This document shows positions 4,030-34,143 of a stretch of 64,000 nucleotides of DNA, one piece after another. The notes beneath the pieces were generated by a model. The model was not told the DNA's origin. It was given only the letters and a program-made list of their open reading frames with translations, and did not search any database. Numbering within the stretch: position 1 is the stretch's first letter; each line of letters opens with the position of its first letter. A program made the position numbers and the translations under genes. Source of the DNA: Candidatus Paceibacter sp. (GTDB lineage: Bacteria; Patescibacteriota; Minisyncoccia; UBA6257; JAGOQP01); NCBI GenBank assembly GCA_020724905.1, contig DYGB01000003.1:1431-65430 (forward strand). The letters run 5' to 3'.

Positions 4030-4674
4030 ATGAAAAAATCAGCAATGATTTCAGGAATGAATTTCGGAAGTGAATTTTTAACAAGTCTGTATAAATCTGT
4101 CTTAAAGGCAGGTGGTACAGAGGAAGACATCTACAACAAGTGCAAAACAGGGAGCTCATTGTTTGAAAAATGGGCAAAGGATATTGTAGAAAACAAAAAA
4201 TCCTATCAACACCTCACAGTCATTGACCAAAATATCCAAATTCCCAAAGCAACCTTCAACAAAGATGAATTCTTCTCTCAAAAATTCATCTGGATGTCAC
4301 CTTCATTTCAGAAAGATATTCTTCCTGAAATAGAACAAGAAATTACTTCTGCTGACTACACCCTTACCTCTCTTAAACTCAACCATCCTCTTTCTAATCA
4401 CGAAATCAGAAAAGACCTTGGAGAAGATGAGGTAGTATCACCTCATCAATGGGCACAAGAACAGTGTGCATTGATAAATACACAATCCCAAGGAAAACCC
4501 GGTTCACTGCTTGTTAACGGATATGCAAATATTCGTTACGTACAACTCAGTAATGGAACAACCCTTGCTGTGTTCGTGCTCTGGGATGCGAATGCTCGCC
4601 AGTGGGACTGCGACACGTGGGAGTTGGACGATGATGGTTGGGATACCGAGTTCAGATTTTTGGCTAGGAGCTAG
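4030..4674 (+). CDS. DGR target protein (C-terminal variable region, likely C-type-lectin-like ligand-binding fold)
   Basis: 214-aa ORF with a good SD (AAGGAG 8 nt upstream). The last ~35 codons (AVFVLWDANARQWDCDTWELDDDGWDTEFRFLARS) are the VR copy. No obvious signal peptide. Confidence 0.8.
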   Translation: MKKSAMISGMNFGSEFLTSLYKSVLKAGGTEEDIYNKCKTGSSLFEKWAKDIVENKKSYQHLTVIDQNIQIPKATFNKDEFFSQKFIWMSPSFQKDILPEIEQEITSADYTLTSLKLNHPLSNHEIRKDLGEDEVVSPHQWAQEQCALINTQSQGKPGSLLVNGYANIRYVQLSNGTTLAVFVLWDANARQWDCDTWELDDDGWDTEFRFLARS

Positions 4675-4676
4675 TT
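4565..4676 (+). repeat. DGR variable repeat (VR)
   Basis: ~110-bp near-repeat of 4999-5109. 16 differences in the ~102-bp core, all where the TR has A (TR AAC/AAT codons become TTC, CTC, GAT, GAC, GGT etc.). No differences at C/G/T positions until the 3' boundary. Confidence 0.85.
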
Positions 4677-4733
4677 CTTAATCTTATCTCCTTATATCCT
4701 TTTCTTGCTTTTTCTCTTTTCCCCTTTTTCTTA

Positions 4734-4761
4734 TTCCCTCTTTTCATATGAAAAGAGGGAA
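4734..4761 (+). other. perfect 11-bp-stem hairpin (ttccctctttt/aaaagagggaa, 6-nt loop) ~60 bp downstream of VR; terminator of target gene and/or DGR homing-associated cruciform
   Basis: Inverted repeat read directly; follows a ~60-nt polypyrimidine tract (4676-4733). Confidence 0.5.
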
Positions 4762-4998
4762 TTTTAATATATACTTAAATTAAGATTTTTAACATTGTTT
4801 TGGTTACGACTAATACAGGAGATCTTCTTGTAAATATATACTGAGATTTTTAACGGACATGTCTGTTAAAAGGGTAGATGTATGTACATGTAAAAAATAA
4901 AACTAGCTCGTACATAATTCTAATGAGTAAAAAAACTCAGCATACGATACAACAATGAGAACATTCGAATTGTGGTGAAAAGGAGGGGATTATGTATT

Positions 4999-5109
4999 TT
5001 GCTGTGAACGTGAACTGGAATGCGAATGATCACCAGTGGAACTGCAACACGTGGAAGTTGGACGATAATGATTGGAATACCGAGAACAGATTTTTGGCTA
5101 GACGCTTGT
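4999..5109 (+). repeat. DGR template repeat (TR)
   Basis: Invariant copy rich in AAC/AAT codons (AVNVNWNANDHQWNCNTWKLDDNDWNTENR in VR frame). Preceded by AGGAGG+ATG, but presumably it functions as an RNA template rather than a coding gene. Confidence 0.85.
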
Positions 5110-5110
5110 T

Positions 5111-5490
5111 TTATTCCTCTCTTCTTCTTTGAAGGGAGGTTTTTGTTTTTCTACTCCATCCATAGAGCATTCTTCCAATCTCAAGAAGTTGTTCTGAAAG
5201 GTGTGTGTACAAAGAATGAGATATGCATTTTTCTTCCCAGGCAAGCTGGAGAAAGAATTTTAGTGTATCGAGTGTTGCAAGGGCAGATTCAATTGTGGCT
5301 AGCTTATCTTGAGGTGGAAGATGAAGAGATATAAATATGGATTCTAATAAATTTAGAAAAGAGTTCTCTATTCTACTTCCAAGTGTATAACGATAGACCT
5401 TTGGAAAATTTTTAAAACATAAAAACCATGCGCTGTATGCATGTTTTGTCTTATATATGATAGACGGTTCTTGCGGGGGGGGGTATTCAT
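5111..5490 (-). CDS. avd: Avd-like accessory variability determinant (four-helix-bundle protein), start disrupted or shifted at a poly-C tract
   Basis: Manual minus-strand translation ...YKTKHAYSAWFLCFKNFPKVYRYTLGSRIENSFLNLLESIFISL...LATIESALATLDTLKFFLQLAWEEKCISHSLYTHLSEQLLEIGRMLYGWSRKTK* matches the Avd / TIGR02436 four-helix-bundle pattern (FPK.eRY.L.sqi, El.eiGkmL.GW). The only upstream ATG (5490-5488) is +1 out of frame across a C9 run (plus-strand G9 at 5475-5483). Confidence 0.55.
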
Positions 5491-6481
5491 GGAAATATTA
5501 CACAATATGTTTAATAGTATAACGTCTCTTGAAAATATATTGCAGGCGTGGTCTGAGTTTAGCAAAGGAAAAAGGAAGAGGAAAGACGTTCAAGAATTTT
5601 CAGTAACATTATTTGATAATATATTTCTTCTTCATAAAGACCTTGTGAATCAAAGGTATGCACATGGTCCATATGAACATTTTAGAATATGTGATCCAAA
5701 ACCAAGGGATATTCATAAGGCTTCTGTAAGGGATCGTATTGTTCATAGAGCTGTATACAGAATTCTGTATCCATATTTTGATAAAACATTTATTTCTGAT
5801 TCGTATTCATGTAGAAATAAAAAAGGGACACACAAGGCTTTAAGACAATTTGAGTCGTATGTGAATAAGGTTACAAAAAATAACACAAAACAATGCTGGG
5901 TTTTGAAATGTGATATAAGAAAATTCTTTGCAACAATTGACCATAAAATTCTTTTAAACATAATACGCAGAGATAGTATTGATGAAAAAACTATGATGAT
6001 ATGTGGGGAGATTATTAAGAGCTTTTCGTATTATTCTGGGAAAGGGCTCCCGCTTGGAAATTTAACATCACAACTGTTTTCTAATATCTATATGAATGAG
6101 TTGGATAAATGTATAAAACATATCCTTAAAATAAAATATTACATTCGATATGCTGATGATTTTATTATTTTAGATAATGACTATAAAAAACTAGAATACA
6201 TAGTGAATGAGATTCAATCGTTTCTTTTAAAAGATCTTAGGTTAGAGTTACATCCTCAAAAGATCTTTATAAAAACTATTTATTCGGGAGTGGATTTTCT
6301 CGGGTGGGTTCATTTTGTTGATCATCGAGTTCTACGCACAAGTACAAAAAGAAGAATGTTTTCAAACACAAGAAATAACAATAAAAAAGAATCATACTAT
6401 TCATATAAAGGGCTTCTTTCTCACGGGAATGCATATAAACTTGCAAGAGAACTAGAGAGGATAAAAGATAATCCCCTATAA
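5489..6481 (+). CDS. DGR reverse transcriptase
   Basis: Group II-like RT domains 0-7 (LENILQAWSEF..., PRDIHKASVRDRIVHRAV, CDIRKFFATIDH, YADD) with LGNLTSQ in place of the group II QGxxxSP, the DGR RT hallmark. No maturase or endonuclease domain (~330 aa). The ORF is listed from 5441; the likely start is Met at 5489 (MEILHNMF). Confidence 0.85.
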   Translation: MEILHNMFNSITSLENILQAWSEFSKGKRKRKDVQEFSVTLFDNIFLLHKDLVNQRYAHGPYEHFRICDPKPRDIHKASVRDRIVHRAVYRILYPYFDKTFISDSYSCRNKKGTHKALRQFESYVNKVTKNNTKQCWVLKCDIRKFFATIDHKILLNIIRRDSIDEKTMMICGEIIKSFSYYSGKGLPLGNLTSQLFSNIYMNELDKCIKHILKIKYYIRYADDFIILDNDYKKLEYIVNEIQSFLLKDLRLELHPQKIFIKTIYSGVDFLGWVHFVDHRVLRTSTKRRMFSNTRNNNKKESYYSYKGLLSHGNAYKLARELERIKDNPL

Positions 6482-7818: not shown

Positions 7819-9102
7819 ATGCCAACACAAAAGAAACAAAATACAATAGAAAAAAAGTCCTCTCCAAAGAAAACAACGAAGAGTATTTCAACTAAGAAAA
7901 AAAAGAACGTAGTTACAAGTAGCACAAGAAAATCCTCTTCAAAAAAGAACACACATGTTGCAAGAATAAAGGTGGTAGGAATTGGAGGAGGGGGTGGAAA
8001 TGCACTCACTCGTATGACTGATCATTTTCCTCGATCAGTTGAAATGATTGCGATTAATACAGATTTACAAGATCTCGAACAAACACAGGCACGAAAAAAG
8101 ATATATATTGGAAAACAACTCACTAAGGGACTCGGGGCTGGTATGGATCCAGAACTTGGCATGAGAGCTGCTGAAGAGAACAGAGATGATATTGCAGAGT
8201 CTCTTAAAGGAGCTGACATCGTATTCCTTACCGCAGGATTTGGAGGAGGAACAGGAAGTGGTGCAACACCTGTTGTTGCAGAAATTGCTCAAGAACTTGG
8301 CATCCTTACCGTTGCGGTAGTAACAAAACCTTTTTCATTTGAAGGTTCTCAACGAGCAACGATAGCACAAGATGCTCTAGGAAGACTCAAAGACAGAGTT
8401 GATGCCTACATTACCGTATCAAACGATAAGATCTTTTCTGTTATCAATAAAGAGACCTCTCTGAAAAAAGCCTTTGAAGCAATTGATGATGTATTACAAA
8501 ATGCAGTCCTTGGAGTGACTGAGATTATTATTACCCCAGGCATTATTAACGTAGATTTCGCTGATGTTCGTGCCATTATGCAGGGAGCAGGACCTTCCAT
8601 TATTGGTCTGGGGGTTGGGTCAGGAAAAGAACGAGGTATTATGGCTGCCAATGTTGCCCTTAACTCTCCACTGCTTGAAACCACTGTTGATGGAGCAAAA
8701 GGAGTACTCTTTAGTGTTTCTGGACACAAGGATATTACCATGAATGAAATCAATGAGATTGCTCAGTCTATTGCAGAAAACGCAGATCCTTCAGCACGTA
8801 TTATCTTTGGAACGTATCATGACAGGAAGCTTTCAAAAGGAAAGATAAAGGTAACACTTATCGCTACCGGATTTGGGTCTTCGTATGGAAGAAATGTTTC
8901 TCTCTTTGGCGAACCATCATTTTCTCAAGCAACACTCTTTGGAGATGAAGGCAATGATGAAAGTGAAGATACCTACGTCCCAGAAGAACAGAAAGAAGAA
9001 TCTAGGCCAGTAATAACAAAAGATACTGAAGAGACAAGTGAAGAAGAGTTGTGGGATATTCCCGCATTTTTGAGAAAAAAGAAAGGGAAAAAGGGTAAAT
9101 AA
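7819..9102 (+). CDS. ftsZ: cell division GTPase FtsZ (with lysine-rich N-terminal extension)
   Basis: GGGGGNA tubulin signature, GGGTGSGATPVVAEIA, T7 loop region. Confidence 0.9.
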   Translation: MPTQKKQNTIEKKSSPKKTTKSISTKKKKNVVTSSTRKSSSKKNTHVARIKVVGIGGGGGNALTRMTDHFPRSVEMIAINTDLQDLEQTQARKKIYIGKQLTKGLGAGMDPELGMRAAEENRDDIAESLKGADIVFLTAGFGGGTGSGATPVVAEIAQELGILTVAVVTKPFSFEGSQRATIAQDALGRLKDRVDAYITVSNDKIFSVINKETSLKKAFEAIDDVLQNAVLGVTEIIITPGIINVDFADVRAIMQGAGPSIIGLGVGSGKERGIMAANVALNSPLLETTVDGAKGVLFSVSGHKDITMNEINEIAQSIAENADPSARIIFGTYHDRKLSKGKIKVTLIATGFGSSYGRNVSLFGEPSFSQATLFGDEGNDESEDTYVPEEQKEESRPVITKDTEETSEEELWDIPAFLRKKKGKKGK

Positions 9103-17451: not shown

Positions 17452-17551
17452 AATCTCTTGTGTACACTACAACAGAATAAAGACACAAACATGTATAACA
17501 ACTAGTATATATTTTATATATTTTTCTAGTTGCCTCGTTTATTTTTTTATT

Positions 17552-19285
<1,734 letters not shown>

Positions 19286-19933: not shown

Positions 19934-20491
19934 ATGAATACAAAAGGATTTACACTCGTTGAGCTTCTGGTCGTTATTGGTATTCTAGCTATTTTAACTG
20001 CTGCAGTGGTTATTATCTTAAATCCTGCTGAGTTGTTGAGACAAGCTCGAGACAGTCAACGATTTACTGATCTTGATGCAGTGAGAAATGCTATCTCTCT
20101 CTATCTTGCTGACCGGGGATCAAGTGCTAGCCTTACAGGAAGCGCAAGCAATTGTTATGTGTATACAGGAGGTGCAACTTCAACTGAATGTGGGGGAAGA
20201 TTTGAAAGCTCACAGACAGCTGTCCCAGTAAGTTCGCTCAGCGTTGTTGGTGGTGCGGGTTGGATTCCTATTGATTTTTCAGCCATTTCATCTGGATCAC
20301 CATTATCAGTTCTTCCTCAGGACCCAAGTCATGGAGCAACGTATTACTATGCGTATACAGCAGACAATACATCATATGACTTTGAATTGAATGCCGTTCT
20401 AGAAAGTACAAAATATGTAGGTGATAAAGATGCAAATGATGGAGGAGATAATGTAAATGTGTACGAAGTGGGAAGCGATCTAACTCTATAA
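19934..20491 (+). CDS. type IV pilin-like protein (paralog A)
   Basis: MNTKGFTLVELLVVIGILAILTAAVVIILNP prepilin leader and N-terminal helix. Confidence 0.8.
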   Translation: MNTKGFTLVELLVVIGILAILTAAVVIILNPAELLRQARDSQRFTDLDAVRNAISLYLADRGSSASLTGSASNCYVYTGGATSTECGGRFESSQTAVPVSSLSVVGGAGWIPIDFSAISSGSPLSVLPQDPSHGATYYYAYTADNTSYDFELNAVLESTKYVGDKDANDGGDNVNVYEVGSDLTL

Positions 20492-20694: not shown

Positions 20695-21243
20695 ATGAAT
20701 ACAAAAGGATTTACACTCGTTGAGCTTCTGGTCGTTATTGGTATTCTAGCTATTTTAACTGCTGCAGTGGTTATTATCTTAAATCCTGCTGAGTTGTTGA
20801 GACAAGCTCGAGACAGTCAACGATTTACTGATCTTGATGCAGTGAGAAATGCTATTTCTCTCTATCTTGCTGATCGAGGTTCAAGTGCCAACATTGGGAA
20901 CTCATCACTTTGTTATATATATGACAGCGCAACAAGTACAGCCCTATGTGGTGGTAGATTTGCAACAGGAACAACAACATCTTCTGCAGCACGGACGGTT
21001 GCAGGAAGTGGATGGATTCCTATTAACTTTTCAGCCATTTCATCTGGATCACCACTGTCAGTACTACCCGTTGACCCAAGTAATGGAGCAACATATTACT
21101 ATGCATACAAAGGAAATAGTACATCGTATGATTTTGAGATAAATGCCGTTCTAGAAAGTACAAAATACGTAGGTGATAAAGATGCAAACGACGGAGGAAA
21201 TAGCTCTAGTATCTACGAAGTGGGAAGCGATCTAACTCTATAA
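20695..21243 (+). CDS. type IV pilin-like protein (paralog B, tandem duplicate with diverged central region)
   Basis: Identical leader, N-terminus and C-terminal ~45 aa; 5' UTR from 20621 is identical to 19860-19933. Confidence 0.8.
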   Translation: MNTKGFTLVELLVVIGILAILTAAVVIILNPAELLRQARDSQRFTDLDAVRNAISLYLADRGSSANIGNSSLCYIYDSATSTALCGGRFATGTTTSSAARTVAGSGWIPINFSAISSGSPLSVLPVDPSNGATYYYAYKGNSTSYDFEINAVLESTKYVGDKDANDGGNSSSIYEVGSDLTL

Positions 21244-33435: not shown

Positions 33436-34143
33436 TTGTGTATACTTGTAGATATGAGTAATAAACATGCACAATTTATCAAAGCGCTGAGAGTTAAGCG
33501 TGGTTTTTCTCAATCCGAACTTGCTATAAAACTTGGAATGTCCAGACCTTCGTATATAGCAGTAGAACAAGGAAAGAAGGAATTAACTCTTTCAGAAGCA
33601 GAAAAACTTTCTGAGATTTTTGGGGTGTCTCTGAAAGAAATGGAAAGTGGTGTCTTTGCGAATTATGAAAAATATAAACAAATGATCATTGCTTATATAA
33701 GAAATGCTGGATCAAAGAAAAACGGGTGTATCACAAAAACAAAGCTAGCTAAACTTGTATATTTAGCGGATTTTGCATGGTTTTATAACCACTTAGAAAG
33801 CATGAGTGGTATGCAGTATAGAAAAATTCAATATGGACCTGTCCCAGATTCTTATTTCCGTGCTATAGATGAGCTTTTTGAAGATGGGCAAATTGAGATT
33901 ATTCCAACAGAAGATGGGGCTATGCTTATTTCTCAAACGAGAAATGGAGCAAAGATTGCGCTATCTGAAATTAATAAAGACGAAAAAAAACTTATAAAAA
34001 ATATTTCAGATAAGTGGAAAGACAAGAATACGAAAGAGATAGTTGCTTTTACTCATAACCAACTTCCATACGCTGTCTGTTTAGATAATGAAATTATTCC
34101 GTATGAATTAATAACTCAGGAAAATCCAGAAGATGTCTACTAA
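33436..34143 (+). CDS. HTH (XRE-family) plus Panacea/DUF4065-domain protein, antitoxin-like
   Basis: N-terminal XRE HTH (LRVKRGFSQSELAIKLGMSRPSYIAVEQG). C-terminal KLAKLVYLADFAWF...QYRKIQYGPVPDSYF matches the DUF4065/Panacea pattern. Confidence 0.7.
   Translation: MCILVDMSNKHAQFIKALRVKRGFSQSELAIKLGMSRPSYIAVEQGKKELTLSEAEKLSEIFGVSLKEMESGVFANYEKYKQMIIAYIRNAGSKKNGCITKTKLAKLVYLADFAWFYNHLESMSGMQYRKIQYGPVPDSYFRAIDELFEDGQIEIIPTEDGAMLISQTRNGAKIALSEINKDEKKLIKNISDKWKDKNTKEIVAFTHNQLPYAVCLDNEIIPYELITQENPEDVY

Follow-up and report, generated by a model that had tools for sequence, protein, structure and literature searches.

The stretch of DNA analyzed here, 64 kb of contig DYGB01000003.1 from Candidatus Paceibacter sp. 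(hereafter the window), carries a complete diversity-generating retroelement (DGR) with the B3 gene order of the Candidate Phyla Radiation (CPR), i.e., a target gene with its variable repeat (VR), a template repeat (TR), the accessory gene avd on the opposite strand and a reverse transcriptase (RT) gene. Our subject is a homopolymer at positions 5475-5483, nine C on the avd strand and nine G on the RT strand, which separates the start codon of avd from the rest of its reading frame and is a candidate for a slipped-strand switch. All the evidence is comparative and was drawn from consensus assemblies. The GC content of the window is 38.8%, above the approximately 30% supposed in the first-pass annotation, and G9 is the sole run of seven or more G or C within the 64 kb.

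The target gene (4030-4674, plus strand) is an open reading frame (ORF) for a protein of 214 aa with the VR at its C-terminus; it has a syntenic homologue in a sister locus, L008, and a Pfam search of its product returned no domain. Alignment of the two repeats places the VR at 4565-4668 and the TR at 4999-5102, both on the plus strand, with 33 adenines in the aligned 112 nt of the TR. Within 4565-4668 the repeats differ at 16 positions, all of them TR adenines and none at another base, while two non-adenine differences lie just beyond the 3' boundary of the repeat core. Adenine-specific differences and a VR at the 3' end of the target gene are the hallmarks of a DGR. The VR is identical across all assemblies of the strain in the window. 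The RT gene (5489-6481, plus strand; 330 aa) matches RVT_1 at 91.8 bits, its translation contains the motifs LGNLTSQ and YADD of DGR-type RTs, and its closest relatives form a large clade of Patescibacteria DGR RTs. The DGR setting that had been proposed for avd is thus confirmed by an RT, a TR and a VR beside it.

The avd frame beyond the tract (5111-5474, minus strand) reads QEPSIIYKTK...RRREE over 120 codons, followed by the stop TAA (5113-5111); its assignment draws on profile, fold and substitution pattern. With one C added, the conceptual protein scored 57.7 bits against Pfam PF22296 (bAvd; cut-off 40) and 66.4 bits against NCBIfam NF033474 (DivGenRetAVD), under the stricter equivalog cut-off of 80. 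The corrected protein had been put forward earlier for just such a profile search, and it passes the Pfam threshold and falls short of the NCBIfam one. Since an Avd profile found no match in the PDB by sequence, a fold search was required. The AlphaFold (AF2) model of the 120 residues encoded in the window is a four-helix bundle with a predicted local distance difference test score (pLDDT) of 91 and predicted helices at residues 2-20, 25-49, 54-80 and 86-119, helix 1 beginning immediately after the tract. The best Foldseek matches of the model were 8UB7 (8ub7_E, the Bordetella DGR ribonucleoprotein) and 4DWL (the bAvd crystal structure), with template modeling (TM) scores of 0.8-0.88 and root-mean-square deviations of 1.4-2.0. 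The protein is basic, with an isoelectric point of 9.1. Judged by the modeled fold and the Pfam match, the product of the minus strand at 5111-5490 is a genuine Avd, as the first reading of the sequence had held. In the Bordetella prototype, bAvd is a pentamer that binds the RT and is needed together with it for cDNA synthesis.

The minus-strand frame is open from the TAA at 5113-5111 to position 5474 and on through C9 to an in-frame TAA, and nowhere in it, the C9 included, is there an ATG, GTG or TTG. The sole ATG (5490-5488, minus strand) is the avd start codon, matching the N-terminus of the intact homologues P0001 and P0002, and in this allele it sits one frame off the Avd domain. A tenth C rejoins ATG and avd frame and gives MNTPPPQEPSIIYK...; a tract of C7 restores the frame as well, which adds a second length to the one foreseen originally, and otherwise the description of an open frame without a start codon, facing an off-frame ATG across C9, is borne out by the sequence. 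The tract lies 7 nt after the ATG and is consequently a simple-sequence repeat (SSR) in the 5' coding region. The tetranucleotide CATG at 5488-5491 holds the start codons of both avd and RT, so that the two genes begin back to back as had been suggested; the RT start at ATG 5489 agrees with the N-termini of homologues and with L008, where the RT was called from the CATG and the ATG upstream of it is out of frame. The G9 tract was found in three assemblies, namely the window, JGI 3300029893 and Logan SRR5011275, the last two of which may share reads. Over approximately 7 kb these two differ from the window by only five single-nucleotide polymorphisms, clustered in ftsZ. The five fall within 46 bp (8739-8784) and look like either a strain variant or recombination over a short stretch. 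An exact-pattern scan of genome and metagenome contigs, with fixed flanks and a variable tract, recovered no further alleles of this strain.

Comparison with the sister locus L008 is informative about the state of the gene. Its RT is 79% identical to that of the window and it has the same synteny, ybeY-target-TR-avd-RT-ftsA; the intergenic segment at 4675-4990 is 84% identical between the two loci. The tract of L008 is C8, off-frame to the shared ATG by the opposite phase from the C9 of the window. Over the 360 nt of avd past the tract the two loci show no indels, against 10 gap columns in the adjoining intergenic region, and the 52 substitutions are distributed 9/11/32 over the three codon positions. 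The ratio of nonsynonymous to synonymous substitution rates (dN/dS) of avd is 0.11 at a dS of 0.64, that of the RT 0.14-0.18 and that of the target gene 0.18-0.24. By this pattern of substitution, the frameshift appears not to be decay of avd. At the non-adenine sites that differ between the TRs of the window and L008, each VR follows its own TR at 16 of 16, which is indirect evidence that TR-to-VR transfer (retrohoming) took place after the two lineages split. As both lineages have the tract, it was presumably already in existence at the split.

The inverted position of avd had been regarded as an unusual cassette architecture, a view that does not hold. [quoted passage not shown] Among related loci with enough upstream sequence, 137 of 141 have avd and RT head-to-head, and the Avds P0001 and P0002 are likewise head-to-head with their RTs, with start codons approximately 10 bp apart. 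Two loci with a poly-C avd, L042 and L098, are exceptions to this rule, no RT having been detected within about 1.9-2.5 kb upstream.

In order to place the tract in its family, metagenome and GTDB genome contigs were searched with an Avd alignment, which yielded 153 related avd loci from Nomura-, Moran-, Falkow-, Uhr-, Andersen-, Lloyd- and Doudnabacteria, Paceibacterota and others. Of the 153 loci, 72 have seven or more C in a row within a zone of 116 nt at the 5' end of the gene (17 kb of zone in total), while the remaining 611 kb of these loci contain only 12 G or C runs, an enrichment of more than 200-fold. The orientation is always the same, C on the avd strand and G on the RT strand. Four further loci carry (AG)8-13 or (CA)5-15 repeats at the position of the tract, bringing loci with any repeat to 76 of 153. 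Across the family the tract is 7 to 13 nt long, and 10 is the commonest length. Other runs were encountered in passing. Five members of one clade without the 5' tract (L068, L069, L072, L114 and L116) have a C8 at the extreme 3' end of avd, at approximately +325 nt from the K14 codon; a G27 run at position 2380 of L140, 151 nt upstream of avd, and a second C11 beside an N run around position 2400 of L135 are probably assembly artefacts.

Immediately downstream of the tract the avd frame has a conserved motif, P-[S/T/A]-V-L-x-K, which no start codon separates from the tract. In 57 of 64 loci the 30 nt preceding the tract contain an open ATG, compared with 30% at control positions. An in-frame ATG, GTG or TTG is absent altogether from 41 of 64 loci. 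Because conserved residues follow the tract without an intervening start codon, translation must enter via the tract. A downstream alternative start was also considered (a GTG at the valine of 'PSV' in some loci, ATC or ATA here) and rejected, as it is not conserved and the conserved residues begin at the tract itself. With the nearest open upstream ATG taken as the start codon for calling alleles ON or OFF, the 62 unique alleles that have such an ATG include 12 in frame, 20 that need one nucleotide more and 31 that need one less. The gene nevertheless stays intact and under selection despite its OFF alleles, as in an SSR contingency locus: a full-length open frame was found in 51 of 52 unique out-of-frame alleles, and the median dN/dS of 30 OFF-OFF pairs was 0.058.

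Differences in tract length between otherwise identical contigs were also observed. L047 (C12, ON) and L053 (C11, OFF) show no mismatch over 4,776 bp, and the same is true over 5,358 bp of L085 and L123 (C10, OFF) when compared with L086 (C11, ON). In these cases the change in length also flips the frame. A third pair, L045 (C12) and L054 (C11), differs in the tract and in one mismatch over 1,024 bp, both alleles being out of frame, and the strain of the window itself is C9 throughout its three assemblies. A neighbour-joining tree built from 117 unique Avds shows only 8 changes in the presence of a repeat, and repeat-bearing Avds diverge down to 31% identity; one large Avd clade lacks the repeat and begins with a plain ATG. 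The small number of changes and the depth of divergence indicate that the repeat has been kept over the long term.

Taken with these data, the reading that we favor, with somewhat better than even confidence, is a conserved slipped-strand switch on Avd, acting as a stochastic and reversible ON/OFF (or high/low) gate of mutagenic retrohoming. According to this proposal, the C9/G9 tract between the avd ATG and helix 1 would be a conserved hypermutable SSR whose length is altered by replication slippage. In the window only the C7, C10 or C13 phase would connect the ATG to the Avd four-helix bundle, so the C9 allele would represent the OFF state, possibly a leaky one if RNA polymerase or the ribosome slips on the run. 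The switch would gate mutagenic retrohoming because Avd works together with the RT in the Bordetella system. For the family as a whole, we lean slightly toward the view that the poly-C (or GA/CA) repeat is a selected contingency locus, kept since the early radiation of the Patescibacteria Avd/DGR and with most cells OFF. Of the three explanations that the first-pass annotation had offered for the run, it is accordingly the slipped-strand switch that comparison strongly supports, through a conserved, length-variable tract with OFF alleles under selection, and not assembly error or programmed frameshifting.

Several observations sit uneasily with the proposed switch. ON alleles make up only 12 of 62, below the one third expected at random phase (p = 0.02), and an added assumption is therefore needed, namely that OFF is favored. 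A dN/dS of approximately 0.06-0.11 is unusually strong purifying selection for a gene that is OFF in approximately 80% of the alleles sampled, and values so low would be less puzzling were some Avd still made from OFF alleles. The species of the window has been seen only at out-of-frame lengths (C9 here and C8 in the sister), and no in-frame allele of it occurs among called proteins: a search of 5.8 billion proteins with the corrected Avd turned up only relatives at 49-53%, and no in-frame allele close to identical. Tract differences between assemblies could in part be homopolymer consensus noise. Finally, the length heterogeneity and reversibility within one population that a switch entails are features we infer from sequence comparison. 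That Avd is essential in this DGR is likewise an extrapolation from the Bordetella system, and its expression would have to follow the reading frame.

A different reading of the same run, to which we assign a minor though appreciable probability, is decoding at the RNA level. In this case polymerase stuttering on C8-C13, slippage of tRNA-Pro on CCC, or both, would make the tract a constitutive 'dimmer' that keeps Avd low, and such decoding could coexist with DNA-level variation of the tract. It would account well for out-of-frame alleles being in excess and under very strong purifying selection. Read from the ATG, the frame runs ACC CCC CCC and contains a heptamer for a -1 shift (C CCC CCC) that fits X XXY YYZ perfectly, and CCC-C sites are prone to +1 shifts; in Blochmannia and Buchnera, selection maintains ancient frameshifts in poly(A) runs, which transcriptional slippage rescues. 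RNA polymerase slippage is, however, best documented on A or T runs and not on C. The homologues would need shifts in both directions (20 versus 31) while 12 need none, the dinucleotide repeats of four loci do not fit a ribosomal slippage specific to homopolymers, and DNA tract length itself differs between otherwise identical contigs. Folding of the avd mRNA 3' of the tract gave no stable structure (z = -0.5), and the closest hairpin is 31 nt off. Programmed ribosomal frameshifting in the strict sense, which had been listed among the first explanations, is not supported, on these grounds: the slippery heptamer for a -1 shift is present, but there is neither a stimulatory hairpin or pseudoknot 5-9 nt downstream nor a fixed direction of shift, the homologues needing +1 or -1 alike.

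It is also conceivable, if improbable, that the run has another primary role, for instance as part of the RT 5' untranslated region, a ribosome-binding site, a promoter spacer or a DNA/RNA element of the DGR, and that Avd starts independently of the ATG. The RT ATG follows the end of G9 by 5 nt, which puts G9 in a Shine-Dalgarno (SD)-like position; it is invariably the RT strand that carries the G run, and the starts of avd and RT are so close that their regulatory signals must overlap. However, (AG)n and (CA)n stand in for the run at some loci, and conserved Avd residues abut the tract with no possible start codon between, while an upstream ATG is far more frequent than at control positions, as described above. 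The more specific idea that G9 is a general SD site of the RT was discarded, because SD motifs are rare in this genome (8 of 45 genes) and the tract lies anywhere between about 4 and 38 nt from the RT start, depending on the locus.

Two further explanations are each very unlikely in our estimation. According to the first, C9 is a homopolymer sequencing or assembly error and the true tract is C10 (or C7), with avd intact. Long G or C runs are indeed harder to call and several contig pairs differ in tract length alone, but G9 recurs in the separately produced JGI and Logan assemblies, the sister locus is off-frame at a different length, of 62 unique alleles, drawn from many different studies and assemblers, 50 are off-frame, and the discordant pairs have no other indel over approximately 5 kb of AT-rich sequence; the assembly indel that had been raised as a possibility at the outset is thus not favored. 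According to the second, the frameshift is recent and inactivating, with avd a young pseudogene in a dying DGR, which would agree with a VR identical in every assembly of this strain and with the missing in-frame allele, but hardly with two lineages separated by a dS of approximately 0.64 that are both off-frame and still keep avd clear of indels and stops at a dN/dS of 0.11, with the intact frames of 51 of 52 out-of-frame alleles across the family, or with an intact RT, TR and VR in which the VR follows its own TR.

The elements on which the slipped-strand reading is built have counterparts in known systems. The cassette resembles the B3 DGRs of CPR/Patescibacteria in gene order and inverted avd (Wu et al., 2018, PMC5758913; 'DGR clade 2' of Roux et al., 2021, PMC8144416), as well as in having an RT of the Patescibacteria DGR clade, a target without a recognizable domain and adenine-specific TR-to-VR mismatches. 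A search of 8 million full texts, of the papers that catalogue DGRs and of a review, a coverage that did not extend to Paul et al., 2017 (PMC5436926), brought up no description of an avd that is out of frame or contains a homopolymer or dinucleotide repeat. With the DGR of Bordetella phage BPP-1 (mtd-avd-TR-brt; 4DWL, 8UB7) it shares a basic Avd of the Pfam bAvd family and of the same fold (TM 0.8-0.88), an RT with an (I/L)GxxxSQ-type motif and YADD, and the adenine mutagenesis pattern. In contrast to BPP-1, avd is here on the opposite strand, head-to-head with the RT, and the spacer that follows the TR is complementary to the 3' end of avd; bAvd has only approximately 15% sequence identity to the Avd described here and has no repeat tract.

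The tract itself is reminiscent of SSR contingency loci, such as the poly-G/C loci of Campylobacter, Neisseria and Haemophilus and the CT/GA repeats in 5' coding regions of Helicobacter pylori. Common features are a G/C run of 8-13 (mode approximately 10) in the 5' coding region, variation in length among near-identical strains, frame-dependent ON/OFF states and a gene that is otherwise intact. The host, however, is an uncultivated environmental bacterium of the Patescibacteria and not a host-adapted pathogen, purifying selection is unusually strong, and the controlled gene is a hypermutation accessory factor instead of a surface structure or a restriction-modification system. Since that gene is an accessory factor of a hypermutation machine, one hypermutable site would gate another. 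Homopolymer frameshifts rescued by transcriptional slippage, as in Blochmannia and Buchnera poly(A), Thermus dnaX and Shigella mxiE, provide a second comparison. Likenesses to the ancient frameshifts of this kind are a small-genome, symbiont-like host and a homopolymer frameshift kept across species with the downstream frame under selection, whereas the run here is poly-C, its DNA length varies between identical contigs and all three phases occur.

The remaining features of the cassette concern mainly the TR RNA. A terminator-like hairpin with a T run (5116-5139, plus strand) lies directly 3' of the TR and falls inside the 3' terminal part of avd, which is encoded on the opposite strand; its position is kept, with a different sequence, in L008 (1585-1602) and L002 (5376-5356), and it was seen in L004 too. 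This hairpin may terminate the TR RNA or may correspond to the spacer structure of Bordetella. Given its location, the TR RNA could stop approximately 40 nt into the 3' end of avd and so would not be antisense to the whole of avd. A second hairpin, of 13 bp and followed by a T run, is found 3' of the VR and target gene (4733-4762, plus strand; at 1196-1225 in L008) and may be a terminator, a DGR-type hairpin or both. A weak promoter-like site, ATGAAA-16-TATACT (4748-4775, plus strand; 1211-1238 in L008), is a possible start of the TR RNA, but it comes from a consensus scan that returned 4 sites versus 3.7 expected, no excess over shuffled controls. An Rfam scan of the cassette gave nothing at gathering score. 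A sub-threshold match to RT-16 directly upstream of the TR (4911-4996; 22.5 bits, E = 0.85) was not repeated at gathering score in 20 related loci.

Elsewhere in the window, the 16S rRNA gene (17546-19042) carries, close to its 3' end, a group I intron (18983-19233), which is typical of CPR and agrees with the placement of the RT and Avd relatives in the Patescibacteria. Two type IV pilin-like paralogues in tandem (19934-20491 and 20695-21243), which have an N_methyl motif, are 77% identical and show no difference over their first 60 residues or over the 25 nt upstream. The scarcity of SD motifs noted above refers to the long ORFs (8 of 45), and many genes have a TATACT-like -10 box approximately 6-12 nt before their ATG (e.g., at 33454, 14901, 40436, 27903 and 48815), which suggests leaderless or very short-leader mRNAs in this genome. 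In the case of avd, TGTGTAATAT stands 4 nt before its ATG.

One practical consequence of the tract is related to annotation. In no assembly of this locus was avd called as a gene; in L008 a spurious 87-aa ORF was called in its place, and in L009 avd is in frame yet uncalled. Because gene callers miss these avd genes, DGR surveys may under-count Avd and misclassify cassettes as Avd-independent, and the switch, if real, would account for apparently Avd-less or inactive CPR DGRs in catalogues. It could be tested in existing metagenomes by setting tract-length spectra against VR diversity.

While DGRs, the B3 layout and phase variation by SSRs are all known, what would be new is a hypermutable site that gates a hypermutation system, across a large part of CPR DGRs. 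CPR/Patescibacteria carry a large share of natural DGRs, and to our knowledge the regulation of DGR mutagenesis is largely unknown. If our reading is correct, the tract would provide a simple genetic answer to how DGRs are regulated, with hypermutation being bet-hedged among cells. A good VR variant could be frozen once Avd is OFF, a heritable and reversible 'lock-in', and a one-base slip could let diversification resume.

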